From positions 326 to 64,325 of the forward strand of contig QHSX01000058.1 in NCBI GenBank assembly GCA_003221695.1: a stretch of 64,000 nucleotides of DNA. Direction: 5' to 3'. Positions within the stretch are counted from its first letter, which is position 1. The number at the start of each line of letters is the position of its first letter. The notes under the pieces are model-generated. The model did no database searches and had not been told where the DNA came from. It saw only the letters and a list, made by a program, of their open reading frames with translations. A program made the position numbers and the translations under genes. Below, one piece after another: positions 14,165 through 59,318 of the stretch. This DNA is from Candidatus Rokuibacteriota bacterium (GTDB taxonomy: Bacteria > Methylomirabilota > Methylomirabilia > Rokubacteriales > CSP1-6).

Positions 14165-14923
14165 TCAACGGATGCTCTTTGTTTTCGCCCCTTTCGGCAG
14201 CGTGAGCGTGAAGCGCTCGGGCTCGATCCCACCGCCCAGGACGAGGTTTCGGTAGGTCACCGAGCCCGTGACGTAGTCGCCGGCCGCGCTGAAGTCAAAG
14301 CCGCGAATGGTCTGGCCGTCGCGGTGATAGCTGATGGTGATGGACGCCCGCCCGCCGCGGATCTCGACGCGCGTGACGGCGCCCGTCTCGAGGTCGAGCC
14401 ACACGCGCTGGCGCCGGGCGTCGCTGACGAGGTCCAGCGACGGTCCGGAGCCGTCGGCCGGCAGGAGCTCCGCCGTGCGCAGATCCCGGGGCGGCGCCGC
14501 ACGGCCAGCGAGCACCGCGACGAGATCGTCGGGCTCGAGCGGCAGGCCGACCTCACGCGCGATCGTCTCGGCCGTCGCGGGCCCGATGCGCGCCGCGTTC
14601 TTCGCCACATCGTAGGCCGTCAATTGGCCCTCATGGATGACGACGAGGGCGAGGGGTTGCTGGCCGAGCGGCGACAGCGCCTCTAGGCGGATCGAATCCG
14701 GCGCCTTGACGAGGAGCACACCCGTGAAGCCCTTACGCTCGCGACCCTCCTGGACGACGACGTCCGCGAGGGTGCGGAGGTCGGTGAACTCGTGCCAGCG
14801 CACGTCCAGAAGCTCGAGCGCGCGGCGGGCGTCGTCGGGGACGGGCTGGCGGGCGGGCGCCGTCGCGCACCCGCCGGCAAGCACCAGCAGACCGAGGAGG
14901 CTACTGAGACGTCTTCGAGCCAC
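14165..14923 (-). CDS. Outer-membrane lipoprotein, LolB-like by position
   Basis: Lipoprotein signal LVLAGGCATAP. Located immediately upstream of ispE, as lolB is in E. coli. Confidence 0.5.
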   Translation of the reverse strand: MARRRLSSLLGLLVLAGGCATAPARQPVPDDARRALELLDVRWHEFTDLRTLADVVVQEGRERKGFTGVLLVKAPDSIRLEALSPLGQQPLALVVIHEGQLTAYDVAKNAARIGPATAETIAREVGLPLEPDDLVAVLAGRAAPPRDLRTAELLPADGSGPSLDLVSDARRQRVWLDLETGAVTRVEIRGGRASITISYHRDGQTIRGFDFSAAGDYVTGSVTYRNLVLGGGIEPERFTLTLPKGAKTKSIR

Positions 14924-17175: not shown

Positions 17176-18735
17176 GTGGCGTCGGTCATGGCGAAACCTC
17201 GGCGCGGGGACAGCTTGGAGCTCGTCATCGACGACCTCGCGTTCGGTGGCGAAGGCGTCGGACGCGTGAACGGCTACGTCGTGTTCGTGCGCGGCGCCGT
17301 GCCCGGCGACCGCGTCCGCGCCAAGCTAGTGGACGCGCGTTCGCGGTTCGGCCGCGCCGTCATCGAGTCGATCGCGACGCCGTCGCCCGACCGGGTCGAG
17401 CCGCCCTGCCCGTACTTCGGACGCTGCGGCGGATGTCGGCTTCAACACCTCGCCTATCCCGCGCAACTCGCCTTCAAGGAGAAGCAGGTGCGCGACTGCC
17501 TCGAGCGGATCGGCGGTCTCGGCGCGTTCGAGCTCCGACCGATCCTGCCGGCCCCCGAGCCGTACGGGTACCGCAACAAGATGGAGTTCACGATTACTCG
17601 CCCGTCTCAGGCCACCCACGGTGGTGGCGGGCTCGCGGACCCCGCGCGCCTCACTCAGGCCACCCACGGTGGTGGCGGGCTCGCGGACCCCCCGCGCCTC
17701 ACTCAGGCCACCCACGGTGGTGGCGGGCTCGCGGACCCCCCGAGCCTCACTCAGGCCACCCACGGTGGTGGCGGGCTCGCGGACCCCGCTCCAACAGTCG
17801 TCGGCCTGCACCAGGCCGACCGCTACGACGTCGTCCTCGACATCGAGCGGTGCCTGCTGCAGTCGGAGACGATGAACGCGCTGCTCGACCTTTTCCGGCG
17901 CGAGATCCGGGCGCGCGGGCTTTCCGTCTACGACGTCGCCGCCAGCGCGGGGCTCCTCCGCTTCGTGTCGCTGCGCGAGGGCCATCACACGGGCGAGGCG
18001 ATGGTGAACATCGTGGCGACGACTCCCGATGTAGAGACGCTCACGCCCCTGGCCGAGGGGCTCGCGCGCCGCGTACCCGCGACGGCGAGCGTCGTCCTGA
18101 ACGTGAACGCCAAGAAGGCGAGCGTGGCGGTCGGGACGGAGGAGCACCTGCTCCTCGGGCGGGATCACATCCGGGCGTCGCTCGGTGGGCTCAGCTTCCA
18201 GGTGTCGGCCAACTCGTTCTTCCAGACCAACGCGGCTCAGGCCGAGCGGCTCTTCGCCGTCGTCGAGGACGCGTGCAGCCTGTCGGGGACCGAAACCGTG
18301 CTGGATCTCTACGCCGGCACGGGTGTGATCAGCCTCCTGCTCGCGCGCCGCTGCCGGTGGGTCTACGGGATCGAGGTGGCGGCGGCGGCGATCGCCGACG
18401 CGGTGCGGAACGCGCGGACGAACGGGATCGAGAACTGCACCTTCCTGGCGGGGGAGGTGCGTCACGTGCTCCCGACGCTGATGCGCGACGGCGTTCGGGC
18501 GGAGGTCGTCGTCGCCGACCCGCCACGCGCGGGGTTCCATCCGAAGGCCCTCCACGCCCTCGTCGCGCTCGGGCCGGGCCGGCTCGTCTACGTCTCCTGC
18601 AACCCGGCGACGCTCGCCCGCGACCTCCGGGCTCTCGTCGGTGAGGGCTATCGGCTCGAGTGGGTGCAGCCGGTGGACATGTTCCCGCAGACGCCGCATA
18701 TCGAGGCGGTGGCCCGTCTCCGACGGGCTCCATGA
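17176..18735 (+). CDS. rlmD: 23S rRNA (uracil-5)-methyltransferase RlmD/RumA, with a 16-aa x4 tandem-repeat insertion
   Basis: N-terminal TRAM domain, 4Fe-4S Cys cluster CPYFGRCGGCRLQH, and a C-terminal SAM-MTase (DLYAGTGVISL, VVADPPRAGF). The THGGGGLADP repeat lies between the domains. Confidence 0.85.
   Translation: MASVMAKPRRGDSLELVIDDLAFGGEGVGRVNGYVVFVRGAVPGDRVRAKLVDARSRFGRAVIESIATPSPDRVEPPCPYFGRCGGCRLQHLAYPAQLAFKEKQVRDCLERIGGLGAFELRPILPAPEPYGYRNKMEFTITRPSQATHGGGGLADPARLTQATHGGGGLADPPRLTQATHGGGGLADPPSLTQATHGGGGLADPAPTVVGLHQADRYDVVLDIERCLLQSETMNALLDLFRREIRARGLSVYDVAASAGLLRFVSLREGHHTGEAMVNIVATTPDVETLTPLAEGLARRVPATASVVLNVNAKKASVAVGTEEHLLLGRDHIRASLGGLSFQVSANSFFQTNAAQAERLFAVVEDACSLSGTETVLDLYAGTGVISLLLARRCRWVYGIEVAAAAIADAVRNARTNGIENCTFLAGEVRHVLPTLMRDGVRAEVVVADPPRAGFHPKALHALVALGPGRLVYVSCNPATLARDLRALVGEGYRLEWVQPVDMFPQTPHIEAVARLRRAP
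17605..17790 (+). repeat. Tandem direct repeat, 48-nt period, about 3.8 copies, in-frame inside rlmD
   Basis: The CAGGCCACCCACGGTGGTGGCGGGCTCGCGGACCCC(C)GCGCCTCACT unit recurs at about 17608, 17656, 17704 and 17752. Confidence 0.85.
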
Positions 18736-19649
18736 CGACGTACGTCACCCGCCGACTCCTACAGTCGCTGCTCGTCCTCTTCGGCGTCTCGTTCGTCGTC
18801 TTTTTCATCCTCCACCTCACCGGTGACCCGGCGCTGGTCCTGCTGCCGCCGGACGCGTCGGCCGAGGACGTGCAGCGCTTCCGCGAGGCGATGGGGTTCA
18901 ACGATCCGTTCGTCGTCCAGTACGGGCGCTTCCTCTCGGGCGCGCTGCGCGGCGACTTCGGCCTGTCGGTCCGCCACGGCGAGTCCGCGTTCACCCTCGT
19001 CGTCGAGCGGATGCCGGCCACGTTCGAGCTGGCGGGCGCCGCCCTGGTGGTCGCGCTGGTCCTCGCGGTCCCCGCCGGCATCGTCTCGGCGGTCCGGCGG
19101 AACACGCTGCTCGACTACGTCTCCACGGTCGTCGCGCTGCTCGGCCAGTCGATGCCGACCTTCTGGTTGGGGATCATGCTCATCCTCGTCTTCTCGGTGC
19201 AGTTCAACCTGCTGCCCTCGTCCGGGCGCGGTGGGTTCGAGCATCTCATCCTGCCCGCGATCACGCTCGGCCTCTTCACGACCGCGCGCATCACGCGGCT
19301 CACGCGATCAGGGATGCTCGACGTGCTGAGCCAGGATTACATCCGGACGGCGCGGGCCAAGGGCGTGGGGGGGCCACCGGTCGTCTGGAAGCACGCCCTC
19401 AAGAACGCGGCGATCCCGATTGTAACGATCGTCGGCATCGAGCTCGGGACGCTGCTCGGCGGCTCGGTGATCACCGAGACGATCTTCGCGTGGCCGGGCG
19501 TTGGACGCCTGTCAGTGCAGGCGATCTATAACCGCGATTACCCCGTGGTCCAGGCAGCGGTATTCCTGCTCTCGAGCACCTTTGTGCTCGTGAATCTCGC
19601 GGTGGACGTGCTGTACACGTACCTCGACCCCCGGATCCGTCTGCGATGA
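18732..19649 (+). CDS. ABC transporter permease, DppB/OppB type
   Basis: MTTYVTRRLLQSLLVLFGVSFVVFFILHLTGDP..., EAA-like loop. The start overlaps the rlmD stop. Confidence 0.85.
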   Translation: MTTYVTRRLLQSLLVLFGVSFVVFFILHLTGDPALVLLPPDASAEDVQRFREAMGFNDPFVVQYGRFLSGALRGDFGLSVRHGESAFTLVVERMPATFELAGAALVVALVLAVPAGIVSAVRRNTLLDYVSTVVALLGQSMPTFWLGIMLILVFSVQFNLLPSSGRGGFEHLILPAITLGLFTTARITRLTRSGMLDVLSQDYIRTARAKGVGGPPVVWKHALKNAAIPIVTIVGIELGTLLGGSVITETIFAWPGVGRLSVQAIYNRDYPVVQAAVFLLSSTFVLVNLAVDVLYTYLDPRIRLR

Positions 19650-19689: not shown

Positions 19690-19985
19690 GGAAGGGACGG
19701 AGCCGGGGCGCGCCTGGGGCAGGCCACCCACGGAGTCTTCCGATCTCGGGCCCGGACGTGATGGGGGGAAGGGGAGGGAGCCGGGGCGCGCCTGGGGCAG
19801 GTCACCCACGGAGTCTTCCGATCTCGGGCCCGGACGTGATGGGGGGAAGGGGAGGGAGCCGGGGCGCGCCTGGGGCAGGCCACCCACGGAGTCTTCCGAT
19901 CTCGGGCCCGGACGTGATGGGGGGAAGGAGAGGGAGCCGGGGCGCGCCTGGGGCAGGCCACCCACGGAGTCTTCCGATCTCAGGG
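19690..19985 (+). repeat. Tandem direct repeat, 78-nt period, about 3.7 copies, between two permease genes
   Basis: The AGCCGGGGCGCGCCTGGGGCAGGCCACCCACGGAGTCTTCCGATCTCGGGCCCGGACGTGATGGGGGGAAGGGGAGGG unit starts at about 19701, 19779, 19857 and 19935. It carries four G-runs per unit. Confidence 0.85.
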
Positions 19986-19996
19986 CGCCCGCTACA

Positions 19997-20899
19997 ATGA
20001 CCGCCACGACGATCACGATCCCCGCCGAGGGGGTCGCCGCGCGAAGCGAGTGGCTGACGCTACTCCGCCGACTCGCGCGCCGACGGACGGCGCTGTTCGG
20101 TCTCGTCGTTGTCGCGCTCGTGTTCGTCGCTGCGGCCGGGGCTCCGTGGTGGAGCCCCTGGGACCCGATCGAGCAGGACATCACCAACCGCCTGAAGCCG
20201 CCCGGGTCACCGGACCCGTCGGGCCGCATGCACGTGCTCGGCACCGACCACCTCGGGCGCGACCTTCTGGCGCGCGTGATCTTCGGTGCGCGCCCCGCAC
20301 TGCTGGTCGGCGTCGCGGCGGTGGCGATCTCGGGGATCATCGGGATGATCGTCGGGCTCGTCTCCGGCTACTTCGGGGGCCGCACCGACGACGTCTTTAT
20401 GCGGCTCGCGGACATCCAGCTCGCGTTTCCGTTCATCCTGCTGGCGATCGCCGTGATCGGTGTCCTGGGGCCGAGCCTGCCCGTCATCATCATCGTCATC
20501 GGGGTCTCGAGCTGGGTCGTCTACGCGCGCGTCGTGCGCGGCGCGGTGCTGTCGCTGCGCGAGCGGGAGTTCGTGCAGGCGGCACAGGCCCTGGGCAGCC
20601 GCGACGGCCGGATCCTCGTGCGCCACATCCTGCCGAACGCGTTCACGCCGTGGCTCGTCGTCGCCACGCTCGACATGGCGCGCGTCATCGTGATCGAATC
20701 GGCGCTCTCGTTCCTCGGGCTCGGGGTGCAGCCGCCGACGCCCACCTGGGGCGGAATGCTCGCGGACGGGCGCGTCTACATCTCGACGGCGTGGTGGCTC
20801 GCGACCTTCCCCGGGCTTGCCATTCTCGTGACGGTGCTCGGGATCAACCTGTTCGGCGATGGACTGCGCGACACGCTCGACCCGCGCCTGAAAGTCTGA
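19997..20899 (+). CDS. ABC transporter permease, DppC/OppC type
   Basis: N-terminal OppC_N-like segment plus 6 TM helices. Pairs with the 18732 permease. Confidence 0.85.
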   Translation: MTATTITIPAEGVAARSEWLTLLRRLARRRTALFGLVVVALVFVAAAGAPWWSPWDPIEQDITNRLKPPGSPDPSGRMHVLGTDHLGRDLLARVIFGARPALLVGVAAVAISGIIGMIVGLVSGYFGGRTDDVFMRLADIQLAFPFILLAIAVIGVLGPSLPVIIIVIGVSSWVVYARVVRGAVLSLREREFVQAAQALGSRDGRILVRHILPNAFTPWLVVATLDMARVIVIESALSFLGLGVQPPTPTWGGMLADGRVYISTAWWLATFPGLAILVTVLGINLFGDGLRDTLDPRLKV

Positions 20900-21008: not shown

Positions 21009-21644
21009 CTACGGGTCTCGGAGGGCCCCCCGCCCCCGGCCGTGCCCGTCCGCACCCGCGTCGGTCTTCCGGCGGAGTCGAGCGCGCGCAAGCAGCGTCA
21101 GACCGGCGGCGGGCGTGGTGACCCAGAGCGGACCGGAGGCCACGCCCGCCCACGCGTTGATCGCGATTGCGGCGGCCCCCCCGGCCGCCGCGAGCCACAA
21201 GAGGATGGTGGTCGCGCCGTCCAGCGCCGGGCGCCAGCCTCGGCAGACCGCGACGAGGGAGAGCGCGGCGCCGGCGCCGTCGATCCCGACGTCCACTGCG
21301 CTGCCGGTCCGGGACGCCACGAACGACTGATGCCACTCGTCGAGGGCGGCCCAGGCCAAGCTGATCCCGAACGCGAGCCAGCCGACAGCCGGCGGGGCGA
21401 GGCGACTGCCATGCGTGAGCGCGCGGTACCAGAGCGCGGCGAGGATCGCGTACTCGGTGAGGTGCGCGCCCTTGCGCACGAGCCCGTGGATGGCGTCGAG
21501 GTCGCCGGGCGATGCCCATGGCAGGAGCCAGCGGAGCACGGGCAGGAGGAACTCGCCCGTGTGCTCCGCGCTGGCGGTGTCGGTCGACAGGAACATGATC
21601 ACGCCCATCCAGAGCACGGGGGGGAGCCAGTGGGCGGGACGCAT
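21009..21644 (-). CDS. VanZ-family membrane protein
   Basis: GLVRKGAHLTEYAILAALWY VanZ-like motif and 4-5 TM segments. The start at MRPAHW may instead be the downstream MGVIMF. Confidence 0.55.
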   Translation of the reverse strand: MRPAHWLPPVLWMGVIMFLSTDTASAEHTGEFLLPVLRWLLPWASPGDLDAIHGLVRKGAHLTEYAILAALWYRALTHGSRLAPPAVGWLAFGISLAWAALDEWHQSFVASRTGSAVDVGIDGAGAALSLVAVCRGWRPALDGATTILLWLAAAGGAAAIAINAWAGVASGPLWVTTPAAGLTLLARARLRRKTDAGADGHGRGRGALRDP

Positions 21645-21665
21645 CGCTTTGCTATCATACCGGGC

Positions 21666-22013
21666 ATGGCCAGGGTGGACTGGAGCTATCACCGCAAGGG
21701 CTGAAACTCCTGCGCCCGTGCGCAAGAGTTTCTTGCGAAGAGGAGGGTCAGCGTCGTCGAGCAGGTGGACACGCGGAAGTCGCCGATCACCGGCGAGGCC
21801 GCGCTCGTCGTGACCAAGGACGTCGACGAGGTCTGGGTCGCTAGGGGCAAGAAGGCCGTCCACGTGGACCTCACGGCGTCCCGGCCGCCCATGGCCGAGC
21901 TGCTCCAGCTTCTCCTGGGGCCGACCGGAGGGCTCCGGGCGCCGACGCTTCGGGTCGGCCGGACGCTGCTCGTCGGGTTCAATGCGGAGGCGTACGCGAA
22001 AATCTTGAAGTAG
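21666..22013 (+). CDS. ArsC/Spx-family thioredoxin-fold protein with an in-frame TGA at codon 13 (candidate selenoprotein, U-x-x-C)
   Basis: ATG(21666) MARVDWSYHRKG-TGA-NSCARAQEFLAKRRVSVVEQVD...GPTGGLRAPTLRVGRTLLVGFNAEAY. The TGA aligns with the first Cys of the family CxxC. Hairpin CGCAAGA-GTT-TCTTGCG lies about 16 nt downstream. Confidence 0.5.
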
Positions 22014-22053
22014 AGGTCGGTCGGGGCCCACTCGCCATGATAGAGTTGGCGCG

Positions 22054-24417
22054 ATGCTCGGCGAGATCCTCGACGCTCTGCTGACCTCACCGTCGACTGG
22101 GCCGTGCATCACGGCGACCCGGCACTTCGCTCCCCGACCTCCCGTGCTCGTCCCGTTCCCGCCCTCGCTCGACGCGCGGATCGCTGACGGACTGCGCGCG
22201 CGGGGGATCCACGAGCTCTACTCGCACCAGGCGCGCGCGTGGGAGCTGATCGCGAAGGGTCATCACGTCGTCGTCGTGACGCCCACGGCCTCTGGCAAGA
22301 CGCTCTGCTACAACCTCCCCGCGCTCCAGTCCTTGCTGCAGCAACCCGACGTGCGCGTCCTCTATCTCTTCCCGACGAAGGCCCTCGCTCAGGATCAACT
22401 CGCGGAGCTCGAGGCGTTGGCGAAGACTCTGCCCGAGATGCGGATGTTCACCTACGACGGTGACACGCCTCAGGACGCGCGGCGCGCGGTCCGTGCACGG
22501 GCGAACCTCGTGCTGACGAATCCCGACATGCTTCACTCGGGGATCCTCCCGCACCATACCAAGTGGGCGACGCTCTTTCAGAATCTTCGCTACGTCGTCA
22601 TCGACGAGCTCCACGCGTACCGGGGCGTCTTCGGCAGTCATCTCGCCAACGTCCTCCGACGCCTCCATCGGATCTGTCGCCACTACGGCTCGGCTCCGCA
22701 GTTCGTCATGGCCTCCGCCACCATCGCCAACCCGGGCGAGCTGGCCCGGCTGCTCGTGGGGGAGCCCGTGGAGGAGATCGCCGAGAGCGGCGCGCCGACG
22801 GGCGACAAGACGTTTGTCTGTTACAACCCGCCCGTCGTGAACCCCGAGCTCGGCATCCGTGCGCCCTACCTGGGAGAGGCGGCGAAGCTCGCGATCCGGT
22901 TCATCCGGAATCGCATCGCGACGATCGTGTTCGCCCAGAGTCGCCTCGCGACTGAGGTGTTGCTGACCTCCGTCAAGAACGGTGTCGCCGACAAGACTGG
23001 CGACAGCGGGATCGTCCGCGGCTACCGCGGCGGCTATCTCCCGACGCGTCGGCGGGCGGTCGAGAAGGGGCTGCGAGAGGGCGAGGTGTTGGGCGTCGTT
23101 TCGACGAACGCGCTCGAGCTCGGCGTCGACATCGGCCACCTCGACGTCGCGGTCCTGGCCGGATACCCGGGGGCGATCGCCTCGCTCTGGCAGCAGGCGG
23201 GGCGTGCGGGCCGCCGGTCGGGCTCCTCGGCGGCCATCTTCGTCGCGACGAGCGCGCCGCTCGATCAGTTCATGGTCACCCACCCGGACTACCTCTTCGG
23301 TACGCCTCCCGAGCACGCGCGGGTGAACGCCGACAACCCGTTCATCCTGGTGAATCACCTCAAGTGTGCCGCCTTCGAGCTGCCGATCGGTCCTGGCGCC
23401 GCAGGCGAGGGAGTCGAGACGTTCGGCGATGCCGACGTCCGCCGCCTCCTCGCCGCACTCGAGGACGAGGGTGTCCTCCACCACGCGGGCTCCCGCTGGC
23501 ACTGGGCGGCCGAGACCTACCCCGCCGACCACATCTCGCTCCGGACGGTGACGAGCGACAATTTTCTTGTGATCGATACCACGGCGCGGGACGAGACGCA
23601 GACGAAGCGACGGCAGATCGTCGCCGAGGTGGATTGGGGGAGCGCGTTCGCGACGATCTACCCGAAGGCGATCTACCTTGTGGAGAGCGAGCCGTACGAG
23701 GTGCAGGAGCTGCACTGGCGCGAGGACGAGGAGAAGGTCGCCTACGTCAAGCGCGTCCGGGTGGACTACTTCACGGACGCGATCAGTGCCAAGGGCGTCT
23801 GGATTCTCCAGCGCCTGGCCGACCAGGCTCACGCCGGGTACCTCGCCGAGCAGGGCGAGGTGCTCGTCGCCGAGAAGGTCGTCGGCTTCAAGAAGATCAA
23901 GCTGGGGACGCTCGAGAACGTCGGCTCGGGCGAGGTCGAGCTCCCGCAGCAGGAGATGCAGACGACGGCGGCCTGGCTGACGGTAACGCCCGAGACGCTC
24001 GCGAGCGTCAGCGCCTCGCGCGAGGAGCTGATCGACGGGCTGCGCGCGGTGACGTACATGCTGCACCACCTGGCGCCGATCTTCCTCCTCTGCGACATCC
24101 GCGACCTGGGCTCGTGGCTCGGCGACACGACGCCCGCCGAGCCTGGCGCCGTCGCGACGCGCGACTCCGCAAAGCGACGGCTCATGAGCGCCGAGCGCTT
24201 CAACCCGACGATCTACCTCTACGACTCCCACGCGGGCGGGATCGGGCTCGCCGAGCGGCTGTTCGAGATCCTGCCGGACCTGCTCCGGCGCGGCCTCGAG
24301 ACGCTCTGCGCCTGCCCGTGCCCCGTCGGCTGTCCCTCCTGTGTGGGGCCCGTCAACGAGGTCGGTCGTAAGGCCAAGGCGACGGCCGGGGCGCTGCTGC
24401 GCGCCCTCGCCGGCTGA
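22054..24417 (+). CDS. DEAD/DEAH-box helicase with a C-terminal DUF1998 4-Cys domain (MrfA/YprA-like)
   Basis: Walker A TPTASGKT, DELH box, HRIGR-like motif VI, and C-terminal CACPCPVGCPSCVGP. Confidence 0.8.
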   Translation: MLGEILDALLTSPSTGPCITATRHFAPRPPVLVPFPPSLDARIADGLRARGIHELYSHQARAWELIAKGHHVVVVTPTASGKTLCYNLPALQSLLQQPDVRVLYLFPTKALAQDQLAELEALAKTLPEMRMFTYDGDTPQDARRAVRARANLVLTNPDMLHSGILPHHTKWATLFQNLRYVVIDELHAYRGVFGSHLANVLRRLHRICRHYGSAPQFVMASATIANPGELARLLVGEPVEEIAESGAPTGDKTFVCYNPPVVNPELGIRAPYLGEAAKLAIRFIRNRIATIVFAQSRLATEVLLTSVKNGVADKTGDSGIVRGYRGGYLPTRRRAVEKGLREGEVLGVVSTNALELGVDIGHLDVAVLAGYPGAIASLWQQAGRAGRRSGSSAAIFVATSAPLDQFMVTHPDYLFGTPPEHARVNADNPFILVNHLKCAAFELPIGPGAAGEGVETFGDADVRRLLAALEDEGVLHHAGSRWHWAAETYPADHISLRTVTSDNFLVIDTTARDETQTKRRQIVAEVDWGSAFATIYPKAIYLVESEPYEVQELHWREDEEKVAYVKRVRVDYFTDAISAKGVWILQRLADQAHAGYLAEQGEVLVAEKVVGFKKIKLGTLENVGSGEVELPQQEMQTTAAWLTVTPETLASVSASREELIDGLRAVTYMLHHLAPIFLLCDIRDLGSWLGDTTPAEPGAVATRDSAKRRLMSAERFNPTIYLYDSHAGGIGLAERLFEILPDLLRRGLETLCACPCPVGCPSCVGPVNEVGRKAKATAGALLRALAG

Positions 24418-24426
24418 CCCGCGTCG

Positions 24427-25623
24427 ATGCAATCGCTCGACGAGCTCCGCCGCGTGATCCGGCGTGTCGAGGCACGGCGGCCGCCGCGCCCCGCCGCGCC
24501 CCCCGCCCACGAAGTGTTGGGCGGCGAGGTCGTCGAGACGGGCGCCGGGCCGCTCGTTGTGGTGCGACGCGAGTACCCGCTGACGCACGTCCACGGCCGC
24601 GAGCCGCTCGCGCCGGCGTTCACGGCCCCGCTCGAGTTGCTCTCCACCGTGGCCCGCGCCGCGGCGCCGGCCGGGGATTCGCGCCGGCTCCTCTTCCTCG
24701 ACACCGAGACGACCGGCCTCGCGGGCGGCACGGGCACCTATGCCTTCCTCGTCGGGGTCGGGCGCCTCGACGGCGATCGGTTCGTCGTGGTGCAGTACTT
24801 CATGCGCGATTTCGACGAGGAGCCGGCGCTGCTTGCCGCGCTGGTGCCGCTCCTCGAGCAGGCCGCCGGGGTCGTCACCTTCAACGGCTCGGGCTTCGAC
24901 CTGCCGCTCCTCGAGACGCGCTTCGTGCTCGCCCGCCGCCGCTGGCCCACCCTGCTGCCCCACCTCGACCTTCTCCCGCCGGCGCGCCGCGTCTTCACGC
25001 TCCGCTGCGCCGACTGCCGGCTCACGACGCTCGAGCGCGAGGTCATCGGGCTCGAGCGTGAGAACGACGTGCCGGGCGCCCTGATCCCGGCACTCTACTT
25101 CGACTTCCTCCGCTCGCGCCGGGCGGCGCCGCTCGGGCGGGTCTTCGACCACAACCGCCACGACGTCCTCTCGCTGGTCGCGCTCCTCGGCTGGTTCGGC
25201 CGCGCCCTCGCGGCGCCCGACCACCTGGGCGCCGAGGATCTCGCCGGGCTGGGCCGGCTCTGGGAACCAGTGGATCTCGAGCAGGCACTCACGTGCTATC
25301 GGGCCGCGCTGGGCGGCGACCTCCCGGGCCGCACCGCCCACCGCGTACGCCTGCGCCTGGCCCGCTGGGAGAAGCGCGCCACGCGCTGGGACCGGGCGTG
25401 CGCGCTCTGGGAGGTCGCCTCGCGTCACGGCGCGTTCGATCGGGAGCCCTGGGAGGAGCTCGCGAAGTTTCACGAGCACCGCCGGCGTGATCTCCGCACG
25501 GCGCGGGCGACCGTCGCGCACGCGCTCGAGCTCGCCGACGCCGCGGGCGCGCCGCTACGGGTGATCGACGCCTTCGCGCATCGGTTGTCGCGCCTCGAGC
25601 GCCGCCTTCGCCGAGCCCTCTGA
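24427..25623 (+). CDS. DnaQ-like RNase H-fold exonuclease with a TPR-like C-terminus (MrfB/YprB-like)
   Basis: LLFLDTETTGLAGGTGTYAFLVGV...VVTFNGSGFDLPLLE exonuclease motifs I/II. Sits 10 nt after the helicase. Confidence 0.7.
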   Translation: MQSLDELRRVIRRVEARRPPRPAAPPAHEVLGGEVVETGAGPLVVVRREYPLTHVHGREPLAPAFTAPLELLSTVARAAAPAGDSRRLLFLDTETTGLAGGTGTYAFLVGVGRLDGDRFVVVQYFMRDFDEEPALLAALVPLLEQAAGVVTFNGSGFDLPLLETRFVLARRRWPTLLPHLDLLPPARRVFTLRCADCRLTTLEREVIGLERENDVPGALIPALYFDFLRSRRAAPLGRVFDHNRHDVLSLVALLGWFGRALAAPDHLGAEDLAGLGRLWEPVDLEQALTCYRAALGGDLPGRTAHRVRLRLARWEKRATRWDRACALWEVASRHGAFDREPWEELAKFHEHRRRDLRTARATVAHALELADAAGAPLRVIDAFAHRLSRLERRLRRAL

Positions 25624-30493: not shown

Positions 30494-30597
30494 GTTTCGT
30501 CACCGTGACGGTGTTCTCAGCAGATTTTTCTTGACCGAATCGAAGCGGGGCGCTCAACATCGAGTCACATGCTGACCACTTGCGGTGAGTCTCGCCT

Positions 30598-33500
30598 ATG
30601 AGCCCTCTGGAATTTCCGGCGCGGATCCCACCGCACAACCTCGACGCTGAACGCGCGGTCCTTGGCGCCATTCTCCTGGAAGGCCGCGAGACGCTCCCGC
30701 GCGTGATCGAGGTGCTCCGGCCGTCCGATTTCTACACGGAGGCCCACCGGGCGGCGTACGGGACGATGCTGCGCCTCTTCGACCGCGGCGAGCCCGTCGA
30801 TCTCATCACGCTCAGCGAGGAGCTCCGCCGTACGGATCAGCTCGAGTTCGTCGGGGGGGCCGCCGCGCTCGCGCTCCTCGTGGAGCAGGCCTCGATCGCG
30901 GCCCACCTCATCGCCTACGCCCAGATCGTCCGCGACATGGCGGTGCTGCGCGAGCTGATCCAGACGTCCACGCAGATCATCGGCCAGGCCTTCGAGGCGA
31001 AGGAGGATGTCCAGGCCCTGGTCGACGACGCCGAACGCCGGATCTTCAGTCTGGCCGAGCGGCGGCTCGAGGGCAGCGCGCTTCCGATCGGCAAGATTCT
31101 CAAGAACACCTTCGAGTACATCGAGCGGCTCTACGAGCGGAAGGAGCATGTCACCGGCATCGCGACGGGGTTCGAGAAGCTCGACCTCGAGACCTCGGGG
31201 CTCCAGCCCTCGGACTTCATCATCATCGCGGGTCGGCCGAGCATGGGGAAGGCCCAGCCCCTCGACGCCCAGGTCAAGACGGTCGCGGGGTGGAAGCGGA
31301 TGGGCGATCTGAAGCTGGGCGACGAGCTCGCGTCCGTGGACGGCCGGCGCTCTCTGGTGAGCGGGATCTTCCCCCAGGGTCCTGAACAGGTCTACCGCGT
31401 CACCTTCTCCGATGGCCGTTCCACGGAGGCGAGCGCCCAACACCTCTGGCGCGTCCATTACCGTAATTGGCGTGAGCCCCGGACGCTCTCCAGCGAGCGC
31501 GTGGCGCAGATGTTGCGGGTCAAGCGATACCGGCACCGTCTGTGGATCGACGTGCCGTCCGGCGTCCACGGTCACGCCGAGGCGCTTCCTATCGATCCGT
31601 GGTTGCTGGGCGCGCTGCTCGGTGACGGGAAGCTTTCGGGGACCAGTCTGATCTTTTCGACGTCCGATGCCGCGATGCTGGAGCAATTTCTCGAGCGGAC
31701 ACGAGAGGGCTTCGCCCTGCGCGCCGTCGGCGGCTACGACTGGCGTATCGTCCAGGCGACGGGCGCGCATCGCCGGGGTACCCAGGGCGTCTCGCCGAAC
31801 CGACTGATGGAAGCGCTCCGCGGGCTCGGCCTCTGGGGAATCCGTAGCGATGAGAAGTTCATCCCAGACATCTACCTGAATGCCTCACGCGAAGCGCGTC
31901 TCGATGTCGTGCGCGGCCTCATGGATACCGACGGCTGGGTCGAGCGCTGGGGGAGCGCGCGGTTCTGCTCCACGAGCGAGCGCCTGGCGCGGAACGTGGC
32001 TGAACTGGTGCGCTCCCTTGGCGGCTGGTGTTCGGTTCGAGGCAGGCGGACAACGTACAGTTATCGCGGAGAGAAGAAGGCCGGCAGACGGGCCTTCGTG
32101 TGCAACGTTCACTACGCGGACCCCCAAGCGATCTTCGCGCCGTCGCGGAAGCGCGACAGAGTGTTGGCGGCGCCGCGGCGACGGTGGCGGCCCGTGTTCG
32201 TCTCGGTCGAGCCTACGCGAGTGACGGACACCCAGTGCATCGCGGTCACCCATCCGTCCCGGCTCTACGTCACCGATGACTACGTGGTGACTCACAACAC
32301 GGCGTTCGCGCTCAACGTCGCGCAGCACGTGGGCATCCATCTGCGCGGCCGGGTACTGGTGCTGAGCCTCGAGATGTCCGCCCAGCAGATCGTCCAGCGG
32401 ATGCTTTGCGCCGAGGCCAAGGTGGACTCGCAGGCGGTGCGCACCGGCTACCTCTCCTCCTCGGACTGGCACCGCCTGACCGCGGCAGCCGGCCGTCTCA
32501 GCGAGGCGCAGATCTTCATCGACGACAGCCCCGGGCTCAGCGTGCTCGAGGCGCGGGCCAAGGCGCGACGGATGAAGGCCGAGCACGGGCTCGAGCTCAT
32601 GATCATCGATTACCTCCAGCTCATGCGGGGGCGCGCGGCGATGGAGAGCCGCCAGCAGGAGATTTCGGAGATCTCCCGGTCGCTCAAGGCGCTCGCGAAG
32701 GAGCTGAACGTGCCGGTGGTCGCCCTCTCCCAGCTCTCGCGCGCGGTGGAGTCGCGCGCCACCCGCGACTTCCGGCCGCAGCTCTCGGACCTCAGAGAAT
32801 GCGTGACCGGCGACACCCTGGTCGTCCTCGCTGATGGGCGACGAATCCAGATCTGCGATCTCGTGGACGGCGCGCCCGAAGTCCTCGCGATGTCTCCGGC
32901 CGGCAAGATCATCATGACCAAGAGCGAACGGATCTGGCGGGTGGGGATACGGCCAGTCTTCGAGATCCGGCTCGCGAGCGGGCGGATCATCCGGGCGACC
33001 GGGCAGCATCGCCTCTTCTCCGCGCAGGGGTGGATGACGGTGAACGAGCTTTCGGCCGGTGATCGCCTTGCGATCGCGAGGAGGCTGCCGGAACCATTAT
33101 TCCCTGACTGCTGGCCGGATCGGCGCGTCGTACTCCTCGGGCAGTTGATCGGGGACGGCAGCTATCTGATTCATCAGCCGTTGCGATACACGACCAGTTC
33201 AGAGGACAACAGCCGCGTTGTCGCTGAGGCGGCAAGCGAGGAGTTCGGGTGTCGGGTCAGCCGCCATGCCGGCCGTGATGGCTGGCACCAGCTCGTCATC
33301 AGTGGGAACGGGAATCGCTGGTGCCACCGGGGCGTTGGCGGATGGCTTCGGCAGCTGGGGATCTTCGGTCAACGGTCCTATCAGAAGCGGATTCCCGAGG
33401 CGGCCTTTCGGCTCTCGACCCGACAGGTCGCCCTGCTCCTGCGCCATCTGTGGGCGACGGACGGAACCATCGCCCCACGCAGAGGCGGGAAGGGGAGCCA

Positions 33501-34278
33501 CGGGGTCTCATATGGCACCAACAGTCCAGGATTGGCGAGAGACGTGGCGGCGTTACTGCTGCGACTCGGCATCGTGGCGAGGATCTCCTCTGCCCGAAAG
33601 GGCAGCTACCGCCCCTCCTTCTTCGTCACGGTCTCGGGCGCCGCGGACGAGCGGCGGTTTCTCGAGACGGTTGGCGCGTTTGGTCCCCGAGGACCCCAGG
33701 CGCAGCGCCTGAAGGCCTTGCTGAAGGACTGCAAGGCCAACACCAACGTCGACACGCTCCCCGTTCAAGATTTCGAGCGGGTGAAGGAATTAATGCGCGT
33801 GCGGGGCATCTCCCAGCGACGGATGACCGTGATGCGGGGAACAGCGTACGGGGGAAGTTCCCATTTCCGATTTGCGCCGTCACGGGCCGTGTTGCAGCAG
33901 TACGCCGAGATCCTCGATGACGACGGGCTTCGCGCGCGCGCAGCCAGCGATCTGTTCTGGGATCGCATCATTGCCATCGAGCCCTCCGGGGAGGAGGAGG
34001 TCTTCGATCTCACCGTGCCCGGCCCGGCGTCCTGGCTCGCCGACGGAATCGTCAGCCACAACTCCGGGGCGTTGGAGCAGGACGCCGACCTGATCCTGTT
34101 CCTCTATCGCCAGTCGCAGTACAAGGAGGACCTCCCGCCGGACGAGGCCAACGTCGCCGACGTCATCATCGGCAAGCAGCGCAACGGCCCCGTCGGCACG
34201 GTCAAGGTCGTGTTCCTGCCCCAGTACGCGCGGTTCGAGAACGTCGCGGAGTCCCACCGGCAGCCGCAGCCGTTTTAG
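30598..34278 (+). CDS. dnaB: Replicative DNA helicase DnaB interrupted by two inteins (extein about 456 aa)
   Basis: Extein N-terminal domain ...Walker A GRPSMGK|[intein1]|TAFALNVAQ ... RPQLSDLRE|[intein2]|SGALEQDADLILFLYRQ. Confidence 0.95.
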   Translation: MSPLEFPARIPPHNLDAERAVLGAILLEGRETLPRVIEVLRPSDFYTEAHRAAYGTMLRLFDRGEPVDLITLSEELRRTDQLEFVGGAAALALLVEQASIAAHLIAYAQIVRDMAVLRELIQTSTQIIGQAFEAKEDVQALVDDAERRIFSLAERRLEGSALPIGKILKNTFEYIERLYERKEHVTGIATGFEKLDLETSGLQPSDFIIIAGRPSMGKAQPLDAQVKTVAGWKRMGDLKLGDELASVDGRRSLVSGIFPQGPEQVYRVTFSDGRSTEASAQHLWRVHYRNWREPRTLSSERVAQMLRVKRYRHRLWIDVPSGVHGHAEALPIDPWLLGALLGDGKLSGTSLIFSTSDAAMLEQFLERTREGFALRAVGGYDWRIVQATGAHRRGTQGVSPNRLMEALRGLGLWGIRSDEKFIPDIYLNASREARLDVVRGLMDTDGWVERWGSARFCSTSERLARNVAELVRSLGGWCSVRGRRTTYSYRGEKKAGRRAFVCNVHYADPQAIFAPSRKRDRVLAAPRRRWRPVFVSVEPTRVTDTQCIAVTHPSRLYVTDDYVVTHNTAFALNVAQHVGIHLRGRVLVLSLEMSAQQIVQRMLCAEAKVDSQAVRTGYLSSSDWHRLTAAAGRLSEAQIFIDDSPGLSVLEARAKARRMKAEHGLELMIIDYLQLMRGRAAMESRQQEISEISRSLKALAKELNVPVVALSQLSRAVESRATRDFRPQLSDLRECVTGDTLVVLADGRRIQICDLVDGAPEVLAMSPAGKIIMTKSERIWRVGIRPVFEIRLASGRIIRATGQHRLFSAQGWMTVNELSAGDRLAIARRLPEPLFPDCWPDRRVVLLGQLIGDGSYLIHQPLRYTTSSEDNSRVVAEAASEEFGCRVSRHAGRDGWHQLVISGNGNRWCHRGVGGWLRQLGIFGQRSYQKRIPEAAFRLSTRQVALLLRHLWATDGTIAPRRGGKGSHGVSYGTNSPGLARDVAALLLRLGIVARISSARKGSYRPSFFVTVSGAADERRFLETVGAFGPRGPQAQRLKALLKDCKANTNVDTLPVQDFERVKELMRVRGISQRRMTVMRGTAYGGSSHFRFAPSRAVLQQYAEILDDDGLRARAASDLFWDRIIAIEPSGEEEVFDLTVPGPASWLADGIVSHNSGALEQDADLILFLYRQSQYKEDLPPDEANVADVIIGKQRNGPVGTVKVVFLPQYARFENVAESHRQPQPF
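31252..32298 (+). mobile_element. Intein 1 (349 aa) in the DnaB P-loop, with a LAGLIDADG homing endonuclease; class-3-like (Ala1, block-F Cys)
   Basis: Begins AQPLDAQ. Block B ...TEASAQHLW. LAGLIDADG motifs LLGALLGDGK and VVRGLMDTDGWV. Block F TDTQCIAVT. Ends VVTHN, followed by extein Thr. Confidence 0.8.
32800..34062 (+). mobile_element. Intein 2 (421 aa), canonical class 1 (Cys1...HN/Ser+1) with a LAGLIDADG homing endonuclease
   Basis: Begins CVTGDTLVVLADG. LAGLIDADG motifs LLGQLIGDGS and LLRHLWATDGT. Ends LADGIVSHN|S. Confidence 0.85.
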
Positions 34279-39394: not shown

Positions 39395-39742
39395 ATGCAC
39401 ATCCACGAGCGGAACCGGGAGAAGAAGCGGCTCGGCACGCTGATGCTCAAGTCGCCGATGAAGGTCTACGCGGCGTTCGGCGAGCTGGGCAAGAAGGTCT
39501 ACGCCGACGGGGCGCTGTCGAAGAAGCACAAGGAGTTGACGGCCCTGGCCGTGGCGGTGTCGCAGAACTGCTTCGACTGAATCGATCATCGCGTCGAGGA
39601 GGTCCTCGACCAGGGGGCGACGGATGCCGAAATCGCGGAGACGCTGGACATCGGGCTGCTGATGGGCGGCACGCTCGCCGCCAAGTCCGTCCGCCACGCG
39701 TTCTCGGTGCTCGAGCAGCTCAAGGCAGCCAAGGGGGACTGA
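39395..39742 (+). CDS. Carboxymuconolactone decarboxylase/AhpD-family protein with an in-frame TGA (candidate selenoprotein, C-x-x-U-x-x-H)
   Basis: SD GGGGAGGG then ATG(39395). ...HKELTALAVAVSQNCFD-TGA(39578)-IDHRVEEVLDQGATDAEIAETLDIGLLMGGTLAA, ending at TGA 39740. The AhpD core motif has Sec in place of the second Cys. Hairpin GTCGAGG-AGGT-CCTCGAC starts 13 nt after the TGA. Confidence 0.55.
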
Positions 39743-57326: not shown

Positions 57327-58276
57327 CCGGGGCGAGGCGCGCCGGGTGAGCGGCGTGGCTCGAGGTAGGTGTCGAGGGAGAGCTCGGGCGTGAAGGTCTC
57401 GAGCCCGACGCTCTCGGGCGCGCGCCCGGCGAAGGCCGCGCGCGGCGCCAGCCCGACGAGCTCGCTCCGGCTCACCCCTGTGCGGTGCCGGCGTGCCTCG
57501 TCCACGACGCAATCGAAGACGAGTGGGATCGGCGTCCGCCGGTAGTCGAGGAGGTTCAGCGAGACTTGCGCGATCCCACGGCTCGCGAGCCGCACGCCCA
57601 TCGCCTGGACCGCCGGGAGGCCGCCCGACGACTCGCGGACCGCGCGCGCGATCTCGCGTGCGATGGTCGCGTCGTCCGTGGCCAACCACACGTTGAAGGC
57701 CACGAGCACGTCGCGGGCGCCGACGAGCACGGCGCCCGAGCGCGCGTCGAACCGCGGCGGCCCGTCGTCGGGCGCGCCGTCCAGCGCGGCCAGGCGCGCG
57801 GGCAGTCCCTCGTACTCGCCGCGGCGGAGTGACCGCGGCGTCTCGCGTCCCGGACGCGTGGCGGCCCGGCCGTAGTAGTAGACCGGGAGCGCGTGGCGCT
57901 CGGCGATCGCGCGCCCCGCGCGCCGCGCCAGGGCGACGGTCTGCTCGAGGGTGACGCCGGCGAGCGGGACGAACGGGAGCACGTCGAGGGCGCCGACGCG
58001 CGGATGGATCCCGCGGTGCTGGCGCATGTCGATCAGCGCGACGACCCGCGCGGCCAGGGCGAGCGCGGCGGCCTCGACGGCCTCGGGCGCGCCCAGGAAC
58101 GTGACGACCGAGCGATGGTGGTCGGGGTCGGCGTGAACGTTCGCGAGCGTGACGCCGGGGACGGCGCGGACGGTCGCCGCGAGCAGGTCGACGCGGGCGC
58201 GGTCGCGGCCCTCGCTCACGTTCGGGACGCACTCGACGACGGCTGCGGGCGGTCCCGCGGCGGCAGCGCCCGGCAT
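57323..58276 (-). CDS. Glutamate formimidoyltransferase (FtcD N-domain-like)
   Basis: VECVPNVSEGRDRARVDLLAATVRAVPGVTLANVHADPDHHRSVVTF. Confidence 0.75.
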   Translation of the reverse strand: MPGAAAAGPPAAVVECVPNVSEGRDRARVDLLAATVRAVPGVTLANVHADPDHHRSVVTFLGAPEAVEAAALALAARVVALIDMRQHRGIHPRVGALDVLPFVPLAGVTLEQTVALARRAGRAIAERHALPVYYYGRAATRPGRETPRSLRRGEYEGLPARLAALDGAPDDGPPRFDARSGAVLVGARDVLVAFNVWLATDDATIAREIARAVRESSGGLPAVQAMGVRLASRGIAQVSLNLLDYRRTPIPLVFDCVVDEARRHRTGVSRSELVGLAPRAAFAGRAPESVGLETFTPELSLDTYLEPRRSPGAPRPG

Positions 58277-58298
58277 GCGGTGTATACTACTCGGCGGC

Positions 58299-59318
58299 AT
58301 GCAGTTCCTGCCAATCGGCAAGCTCGGTGCCGAGACGCTGCAGGCGATCTTCGACAAGCACCCGCTCCGGGATCCCCGCGTCGTCGTCGGTCCGAAAGTC
58401 GGTGAAGACGCGGCGGTCATCGACGTGGGCGACCGCTATCTCGTGGCGACGACGGATCCGATCACCTTCGCCACCGACGAGATCGGCTGGTACGCGCTCC
58501 ACGTCAACGCCAACGACATCGCCGTGCGCGGCGCCCGCCCGCGCTGGTTCCTCGCGACGCTCCTGCTGCCCCCCGGCGCCACCACCGAGGCGGGTGTCGG
58601 GTCGCTCTTCGAGCAGCTCCACGCCGCATGCGACGAGCTCGACGTGGCGCTCGTCGGCGGCCACACGGAGATCACGCACGGCCTCGACCGCCCGATCGTC
58701 GTCGGCGCGATGCTCGGCGAGGTCGCGAAGGACCGGCTCGTGACGACGGGGGGCGCGCGCGTCGGCGACGCGGTGGTGCTCACCAAGGGCGTGCCGCTCG
58801 AGGGCGCGGCGATCATCGCGCGCGAGAAGGAGGCCGAGCTCCGCGCGCGCGGGGTGGCGCCGGCGACCATCCGGAGAGCCAGGAACTTCCTCAGGGCGCC
58901 CGGGCTCAGCGTGCTCCCAGAGGTCGAGATCGCGTGCGAGCTGGCCCCGGTCCACGCCATGCACGATCCCACGGAGGGCGGGGTGGCGACGGCGCTCGTC
59001 GAGCTGGCCAACGCCGCGGGCGTCGGGCTCCGGATCGACCGGGACCGGATCATGGTGCTGCCCGAGGGCCGGGCGCTCTGCGAGGCGTTTGGTCTCGATC
59101 CGCTCGGCACGATCGCGTCGGGGGCGCTCCTCATGACCCTCGCGCCCGGCGACGCGTCCACCGTCATCCACGCGCTCGCGCGCGAGGACATCGACGGTCA
59201 CTTCATCGGCCAGGTCGTGGAGCGCGCCGAGGGCCTCACGCTGGTGAGCGGCAGCCGGCGCGAGCCGCTGACCGCCTTCGCCCAGGACGAGATCTCGAAG
59301 CTCTTCACGGGAGTCTGA
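58299..59318 (+). CDS. AIR-synthase-related (PurM-fold; HypE/ThiL-like) protein
   Basis: DAAVIDVGDRYLVATTDPITFATDEIGWYALHVNANDIAVRGARP. No SelD GGCGCK-type Cys/Sec, and no HypE C-terminal PRIC. Confidence 0.7.
   Translation: MQFLPIGKLGAETLQAIFDKHPLRDPRVVVGPKVGEDAAVIDVGDRYLVATTDPITFATDEIGWYALHVNANDIAVRGARPRWFLATLLLPPGATTEAGVGSLFEQLHAACDELDVALVGGHTEITHGLDRPIVVGAMLGEVAKDRLVTTGGARVGDAVVLTKGVPLEGAAIIAREKEAELRARGVAPATIRRARNFLRAPGLSVLPEVEIACELAPVHAMHDPTEGGVATALVELANAAGVGLRIDRDRIMVLPEGRALCEAFGLDPLGTIASGALLMTLAPGDASTVIHALAREDIDGHFIGQVVERAEGLTLVSGSRREPLTAFAQDEISKLFTGV

Follow-up and report, generated by a model that had tools for sequence, protein, structure and literature searches.

Selenoproteins with a UxxS motif, named "Arsenate reductase", were described in 2005 from the Sargasso Sea, and a 2006 listing from bacterial genomes contains "ArsC-like" selenoproteins. 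The UxxC form entered the literature as "Arsenate reductase 2 (cd03032)" in the GOS survey (Zhang and Gladyshev, 2008; PMC2398784), and the same family appears as "Arsenate reductase-like protein" in a 2026 catalogue (PMC13188914). The literature keeps the ArsC-type UxxS family apart from the UxxC family. One review reports a MAG of the Methylomirabilota in which 63 selenoprotein genes are predicted.

The locus described here lies in a 64,000-nucleotide stretch of DNA from a Candidatus Rokuibacteriota bacterium (the whole stretch is called the window below). It very probably encodes a protein of 115 residues that has a thioredoxin fold, belongs to the ArsC/Spx superfamily and carries a Sec-x-x-Cys motif, the UGA being read as Sec by means of a hairpin and SelB. 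The Sec reading is based on the open frame, membership in family NF041106, a Sec/Cys column in the homologues, conservation of the N-terminal peptide, and a covarying hairpin specific to the TGA-bearing genes. Since the gene passes exactly the NCBI-curated model NF041106, it is a member of a known, catalogued selenoprotein family found in one more genome; calling it a selenoprotein gene is correct but is not a discovery. No new principle is involved, as UxxC proteins of the ArsC-like kind were described together with their Sec/Cys pairing in 2008 and have a curated NCBI HMM. The locus is rather an annotation correction, in which a truncated "hypothetical protein" (or a protein with TGA read as Trp) is rescued. 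The features are collected in Table 1.

Table 1. Positions of the predicted selenoprotein gene, its recoding signals and a second candidate gene in the window.
Feature	Position	Strand	Description	Basis
ArsC-like selenoprotein CDS (predicted)	21666-22013	+	115 codons including the Sec codon; stop codon TAG 22011-22013	translation, NF041106 match, tblastn, GC3
ATG start codon	21666-21668	+	same start position in orthologues L001-L004 (MARVDW or MTRIDW)	
In-frame TGA, predicted Sec	21702-21704	+	first residue of the U-N-S-C redox motif; position U13	
TGC, partner (resolving) Cys16 of U-x-x-C	21711-21713	+	invariant in alignments A4 and A5; present in 81/81 motif matches	
Core SECIS hairpin (predicted), CGCAAGA-GUU-UCUUGCG	21721-21737	+	stem 21721-21727/21731-21737, 7 bp; apical loop GUU 21728-21730	
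Possible extended SECIS	21707-21745	+	lower stem CUCCU 21707-21711/AGGAG 21741-21745 around the core hairpin	
AhpD/carboxymuconolactone-decarboxylase selenoprotein candidate	39395-39742	+	TGA 39578-39580; motif C-F-D-U-I-D-H (CxxU)	
Hairpin of the AhpD-like gene, GUCGAGG-AGGU-CCUCGAC	39593-39610	+	19 nt from the UGA to the AGGU loop	

From the ATG the frame runs through 12 codons, MARVDWSYHRKG, to the TGA, which is the sole in-frame TGA, and then continues as NSCARAQEFLAKRR...AYAKILK for 102 more codons up to the TAG. A sequence-only reading of the same DNA had described the 12-codon ORF, the TGA at 21702 and the continuing frame, and the translation agrees with it. It had also stated that there is no canonical start between the TGA and the GTG at 21765, which is correct: in the ORF listing, this GTG is the next canonical start 3' of the TGA, and the 82-aa ORF that it opens drops the U-x-x-C motif. 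Residues 1-115 are matched by tblastn in the Rokuibacteriota loci L001-L004. The four closest loci among the best 80 of at least 588 relatives (Rokuibacteriota/Methylomirabilia) are 77-82% identical, and at least three of the four are syntenic with the window, a tRNA-Gln lying about 8 kb upstream. GC3 of the sub-segments of the CDS is 0.92, 0.80 and 0.93.

The real gene could be the 82-aa ORF starting at GTG 21765, in which case the 12-codon ORF would be coincidental or a small upstream ORF. Most of the close database entries are 82-86 aa long and begin 3' of the TGA, and an AGGAGG (21740-21745) is present 5' of the GTG. However, the distance from the AGGAGG to the GTG is 19 nt, beyond the typical Shine-Dalgarno distance, and the fold of the 82-aa product would be missing both its first strand and its active site. 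The 33 codons 5' of the GTG are, moreover, conserved at the protein level in many phyla, with WSYHRxG and xxC as invariant motifs; in alignments they correspond to the N-terminal strand and the CxxC helix of Spx and ArsC proteins, and GC3 before the GTG is 0.80-0.92. We consider the short gene very improbable and proceed with the 115-codon frame.

The codon aligned with the TGA was followed in relatives by a scan with one genome per species, in which at least 588 loci were found and the best 80 retained. In the best 80 of these at least 588 loci, the codon is TGA in 69, TGC or TGT in 11, and TAA or TAG in none, and in all 80 WSYHRxG lies in frame immediately 5' of it (the motif of the window is WSYHRKG-U-NS-C). 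These 80 carry at least 10 phylum-level labels. The labels of the MAGs with TGA loci include Rokuibacteriota/Methylomirabilota, Acidobacteriota, Planctomycetota, Verrucomicrobiia, Chloroflexota, Actinomycetota, Gemmatimonadales, Dormiibacterota, Obscuribacterales/Melainabacteria and Binatia, among others. These counts bear on the possibility that the locus is a pseudogene or contains a sequencing error, a Cys codon (TGC or TGT) having been mutated to or misread as TGA. TGA is one substitution away from either Cys codon, and the family has Cys forms. But the TGA occurs in 69 independent assemblies among the best 80 of at least 588 loci, with an intact downstream frame and a TGA-specific hairpin, and most of the substitutions that separate L001-L004 from the window, before as well as after the TGA, are synonymous or conservative. 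An accidental TGA is hardly conceivable against this record.

Homologues were also sought among 5.8 billion proteins, and they fall into three classes. In the first are full-length homologues of 114-121 aa with DWSYHRxG-C-xTC. Many entries form the second class, of 82-86 aa or 102 aa, starting just 3' of the TGA position. The third consists of three entries with W at the TGA column. In the protein alignments, the Cys forms all share W6, Y8, H9, R10 and G12, which lie 5' of the TGA. The sequence-only reading had noted that the first Cys of the CxxC is missing exactly where the TGA sits and had proposed a search for Cys orthologues; homologues with Cys at that column were found both among the proteins and in the 11 TGC/TGT loci given above. 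It had also considered that homologues might reveal a genuine short protein without the Cys. Such a protein was not seen: the short entries are gene-caller truncations, and the DNA of those of 82-86 aa has the same TGA. Standard gene callers leave a "hypothetical protein" of 82-86 aa, with loss of the active site.

The W entries could be taken to mean that the whole genome uses TGA as a sense codon (genetic code 4 or 25, specifying Trp or Gly), and in the one entry whose codon was checked, P0001, it is TGA. However, the residue in the aligned homologues is Cys, neither Trp nor Gly, and 19 of the 36 genes of the window with complete Pfam domains end in TGA. Because these Pfam-supported genes stop at TGA, an altered code is excluded, and we give it practically no weight. 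The most likely source of the W entries is gene calling with an alternative translation table. A separate observation concerns L014 (DATIWG010000076.1, labelled Nitrosotalea sp.), where a bacterial-type copy with a bacterial in-frame SECIS is found on an archaeal-binned contig. In the gene region this copy is near-identical to those of L008 and L023, and the contig, binned as an ammonia-oxidising archaeon, is probably mis-binned.

Regarding the hairpin, which had been placed about 16 nt downstream of the TGA, the distance is exactly 16 nt, and the UGA is separated from the loop by 23 nt. The published criteria for a bSECIS include a small apical loop opening with G then U and a UGA-to-loop distance of 16-37 nt. 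The bSECIS check that had been suggested places the window element within these criteria, with a 3-nt loop of GUU, a stem of 7 bp, a spacing of 23 nt and a stability of -8.7 kcal/mol in context. The bare core stem without dangling ends has -7.4 kcal/mol and the core together with the lower stem has -14.3 kcal/mol. The lower stem CUCCU/AGGAG is not conserved across loci, and an extended SECIS is possible for the window sequence alone. No SECIS family of Rfam was matched at 21600-21850, either at the gathering threshold or with E up to 10, where a chance match to an sRNA was seen (E = 3.9).

In the window sequence alone, folding of 60 nt is unexceptional (z = -1.77), and the minimum free energy structure is a competing fold (21703-21732, + strand), in which GAAACUC (21703-21709) pairs with GAGUUUC (21726-21732) around an inner UGCGC/GCGCA hairpin. 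This fold would tie up half of the SECIS stem, and beyond the window it is confined to the closest relatives (L001 and L004). With the UGA in the A site, the nucleotides of the competing fold would lie inside the mRNA channel of the ribosome, as judged from ribosome footprints in general. Because the z score is weak and the minimum free energy structure is the competing one, the case for the SECIS rests on comparison and not on single-sequence thermodynamics.

For the comparison, 68 TGA sequences were aligned without gaps over the 48 nt that start at the TGA. Columns 20-36 read CGCAAG(A/G)-GUU-(U/C)CUUGCG in this alignment. At least six of the seven stem pairs are in register in 61 of the 68 TGA sequences but in none of the 10 Cys sequences, and none of the Cys loci has an element comparable to the bSECIS hairpin; the hairpin goes with the TGA loci and not with the Cys loci. 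The stem pair 26-30 is A-U in 41 sequences and G-C in 19. The change couples a non-synonymous replacement (Glu/Gly) with a synonymous one (Phe TTT/TTC), which would not be a product of protein-level selection. The covariation score was matched by none of 500 column shuffles, and when the 3' partners are shifted, pairing falls from 84% to 27-63%. In the loop, the G (column 27) is identical in 68/68 sequences despite being at a third codon position. Two of the Cys-form loci, from an Obscuribacterales MAG (L079:10028-10084, GCGCAAGAUUUUUUGAC) and a Planctomycetota MAG (L045:10037-10090, GCGCAAGGCUUCCUCGC), have sequences that look like a decayed SECIS. These remnants suggest that the Sec-to-Cys conversions in the two loci were fairly recent.

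The in-frame TGAs of the window were scanned for coding signal on both sides, and the sole credible other case is the AhpD-like gene of Table 1, which had already been pointed out as a second example. Its score for the AhpD/CMD core domain is above the cutoff, and the TGA falls within the domain-bearing ORF. In the homologues P0123 and P0124 a Cys takes the place of the TGA, and most of the orthologues in Rokuibacteriota/Methylomirabilota MAGs are 61-aa truncations ending at the same point. AhpD-like proteins with CxxU are a known selenoprotein family too. Two further TGAs, at 14167 (-) and 38865 (+), were rejected; they look like normal stop codons separating neighbouring genes that share a frame. 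The ArsC-like and AhpD-like genes together would mark the organism as a user of selenocysteine, fitting the very large selenoproteomes reported for Methylomirabilota.

Genes for selenocysteine machinery were looked for in the window and around the related genes. In the 64-kb window there is no tRNA-Sec (ARAGORN gave tRNA-Met and tRNA-Gln only), and SelA, SelB and SelD are absent among its approximately 40 Pfam-annotated ORFs. No tRNA-Sec was seen in the 60 related loci scanned, out of 81, and no SelD-type motif in 1.13 Mb of sequence from the window and the related loci. The AIRS/AIRS_C protein encoded at 58137-59318 (+) was rejected as SelD: it scores 82.5 against the selD cutoff of 125, and the G-C/U-G-C-K loop is missing. 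This AIR-synthase-related protein is also below the cutoffs for HypE (116 vs 252), ThiL and PurM. Its gene adjoins one for gamma-glutamyltranspeptidase.

The protein was assigned to the ArsC/Spx family at the outset, and this has held up. With the TGA taken as Cys, the match to the NCBIfam model NF041106, "ArsC family (seleno)protein", is 130.9 bits vs a cutoff of 85 (E = 2.6e-38), covering model positions 1-107 of 107. The Pfam ArsC model PF03960 is matched over its full 79 positions (E = 8.5e-5) with 23.2 bits, 0.8 short of the gathering threshold of 24, and a precomputed match to it is present in several of the Cys-form homologues. When the family profile was compared with solved structures, the nearest were Spx, putative ArsC-family proteins and YffB, with U13-x-x-C16 aligned with C10-x-x-C13 of Spx and the TGA column falling on Cys10. 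Structure was modelled with AlphaFold for P0054, a Cys-form homologue about 50% identical to the window protein (pLDDT 91, pTM 0.82). The P0054 model has a thioredoxin-like beta-alpha-beta start, the CxxC at the N-terminus of helix 1, and a beta-hairpin in the middle region (residues 56-69). In Foldseek, the first matches of this model are Spx, YffB and ArsC-family proteins, with TM of about 0.55, rmsd of 6-7 A and, for Spx, 21-27% identity. Because the top matches reach only this TM, the family is a distinct branch of the ArsC/Spx superfamily, neither Spx nor classical ArsC.

The fold leads to the question whether the protein, though a true selenoprotein, is an Spx-like RNA polymerase-binding redox regulator or a bona fide arsenate reductase. 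Spx is the best match, followed by YffB and ArsC-family proteins, in both the PDB sequence and the fold comparisons, and the U-x-x-C is aligned with the redox switch C10xxC13 of Spx. However, the scores are below the cutoffs for the Spx/MgsR model TIGR01617 (22.7 vs 75) and for the Spx equivalogs NF002459 (21.2 vs 123) and NF009210 (16.8 vs 159), all in NCBIfam, and the structural similarity to Spx is limited as described above, the model adding the middle beta-hairpin. As to arsenate reduction, no NCBIfam arsenate reductase equivalog was matched at E <= 1, no ars genes were seen as neighbours across the 81 loci, and the literature separates the true ArsC-type UxxS proteins from this UxxC family. 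The model scores and the gene context lend support to neither of these, arsenate reduction or Spx-type regulation, and either function is unlikely. The most defensible assignment is that of a selenol/thiol oxidoreductase.

The gene neighbourhood was compared in 81 loci by all-against-all clustering of the ORFs within 5 kb. There is no conserved neighbour, and the top neighbour cluster is found in 9 loci. For want of a conserved neighbourhood, the locus sheds no light on the function of the family. Directly downstream in the window (22054-25623, +) are a gene for an MrfA-type DEAD-box helicase with an MrfA Zn-binding domain and then an RNase H-like gene (YprB/MrfB-type); the two resemble the mitomycin-repair pair of Bacillus. 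Among the 81 loci, this pair is linked to the selenoprotein gene in 6 close relatives only. A divergent VanZ-like gene starts at 21644 (-), leaving a gap of 21 nt (21645-21665) before the ATG. A search of 21300-22200 gave no promoter of the sigma-70 type; the promoters may thus be located within the flanking coding regions, or the transcripts may be leaderless.

Two other features of the window are recorded here for completeness. A G+C-rich 78-bp tandem repeat (3.8 copies, 97% identical) is present at 19690-19986, flanked by ABC-transporter permease genes at 18645-19649 and 19997-20899. At 30589-34278 (+), the gene for the replicative helicase DnaB is split by an intein with a LAGLIDADG homing endonuclease (Pfam Intein_splicing and LAGLIDADG_3).

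From the above, we infer both the redox chemistry and the SelB-dependent decoding as follows. When the ribosome arrives at the UGA at 21702, SelB carrying Sec-tRNA(Sec) would bind the hairpin located 16 nt 3' of it, and Sec would be inserted in place of termination. The selenol, together with the Cys three residues on, would then form a selenenylsulfide/selenol-thiol redox pair, as in the CxxC proteins of the fold. A more far-reaching proposal is that the protein is no generic oxidoreductase but a redox sensor of the Spx kind that works with selenium, or else a specialised reductase whose middle subdomain is distinct, and that the Sec form has been horizontally spread with a portable SECIS. 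The portability is suggested because the SECIS is near-invariant over at least 10 phylum-level labels and the loop G is fixed at a synonymous site. As a whole, this proposal is unlikely.

Compared with the SECIS of the E. coli fdhF type and the bSECIS consensus, the predicted element is similar in being a stem-loop within the coding sequence 3' of the UGA, with a loop of G then U and a UGA-to-loop spacing inside 16-37 nt. Unlike the fdhF-type element, it has a family-specific sequence, CGCAAG[A/G]GUU[U/C]CUUGCG, that is almost invariant across phyla, and its core is predicted to be a plain, bulge-free stem of 7 bp that closes a 3-nt loop. Spx is a redox-sensing regulator that binds RNA polymerase. 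The Spx proteins of Bacillus subtilis and other Firmicutes (PDB 1z3e, 3gfk, 6ghb) share with the window protein the superfamily, the overall fold and the position of the CxxC, whereas the window protein has a predicted Sec for Cys and a sub-cutoff score for Spx/MgsR. The glutaredoxin-coupled ArsC (R773/E. coli; PF03960) belongs to the same Pfam clan and has the same fold, with the nucleophile likewise at the N-terminus of helix 1. However, the selenoprotein form of ArsC, "Arsenate reductase 1", has UxxS where the window protein has UxxC, and, in contrast to ArsC proper, the window gene is without an ars operon context and without a match to an arsenate reductase equivalog. The closest system remains NF041106 itself. 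The first described members of that family are from marine metagenomes, whereas the window copy is from a high-GC (70%) organism, and there is otherwise no substantive difference: the UxxC is at the same N-terminal position, the length is about 115 aa, and the family has Sec forms as well as Cys forms.
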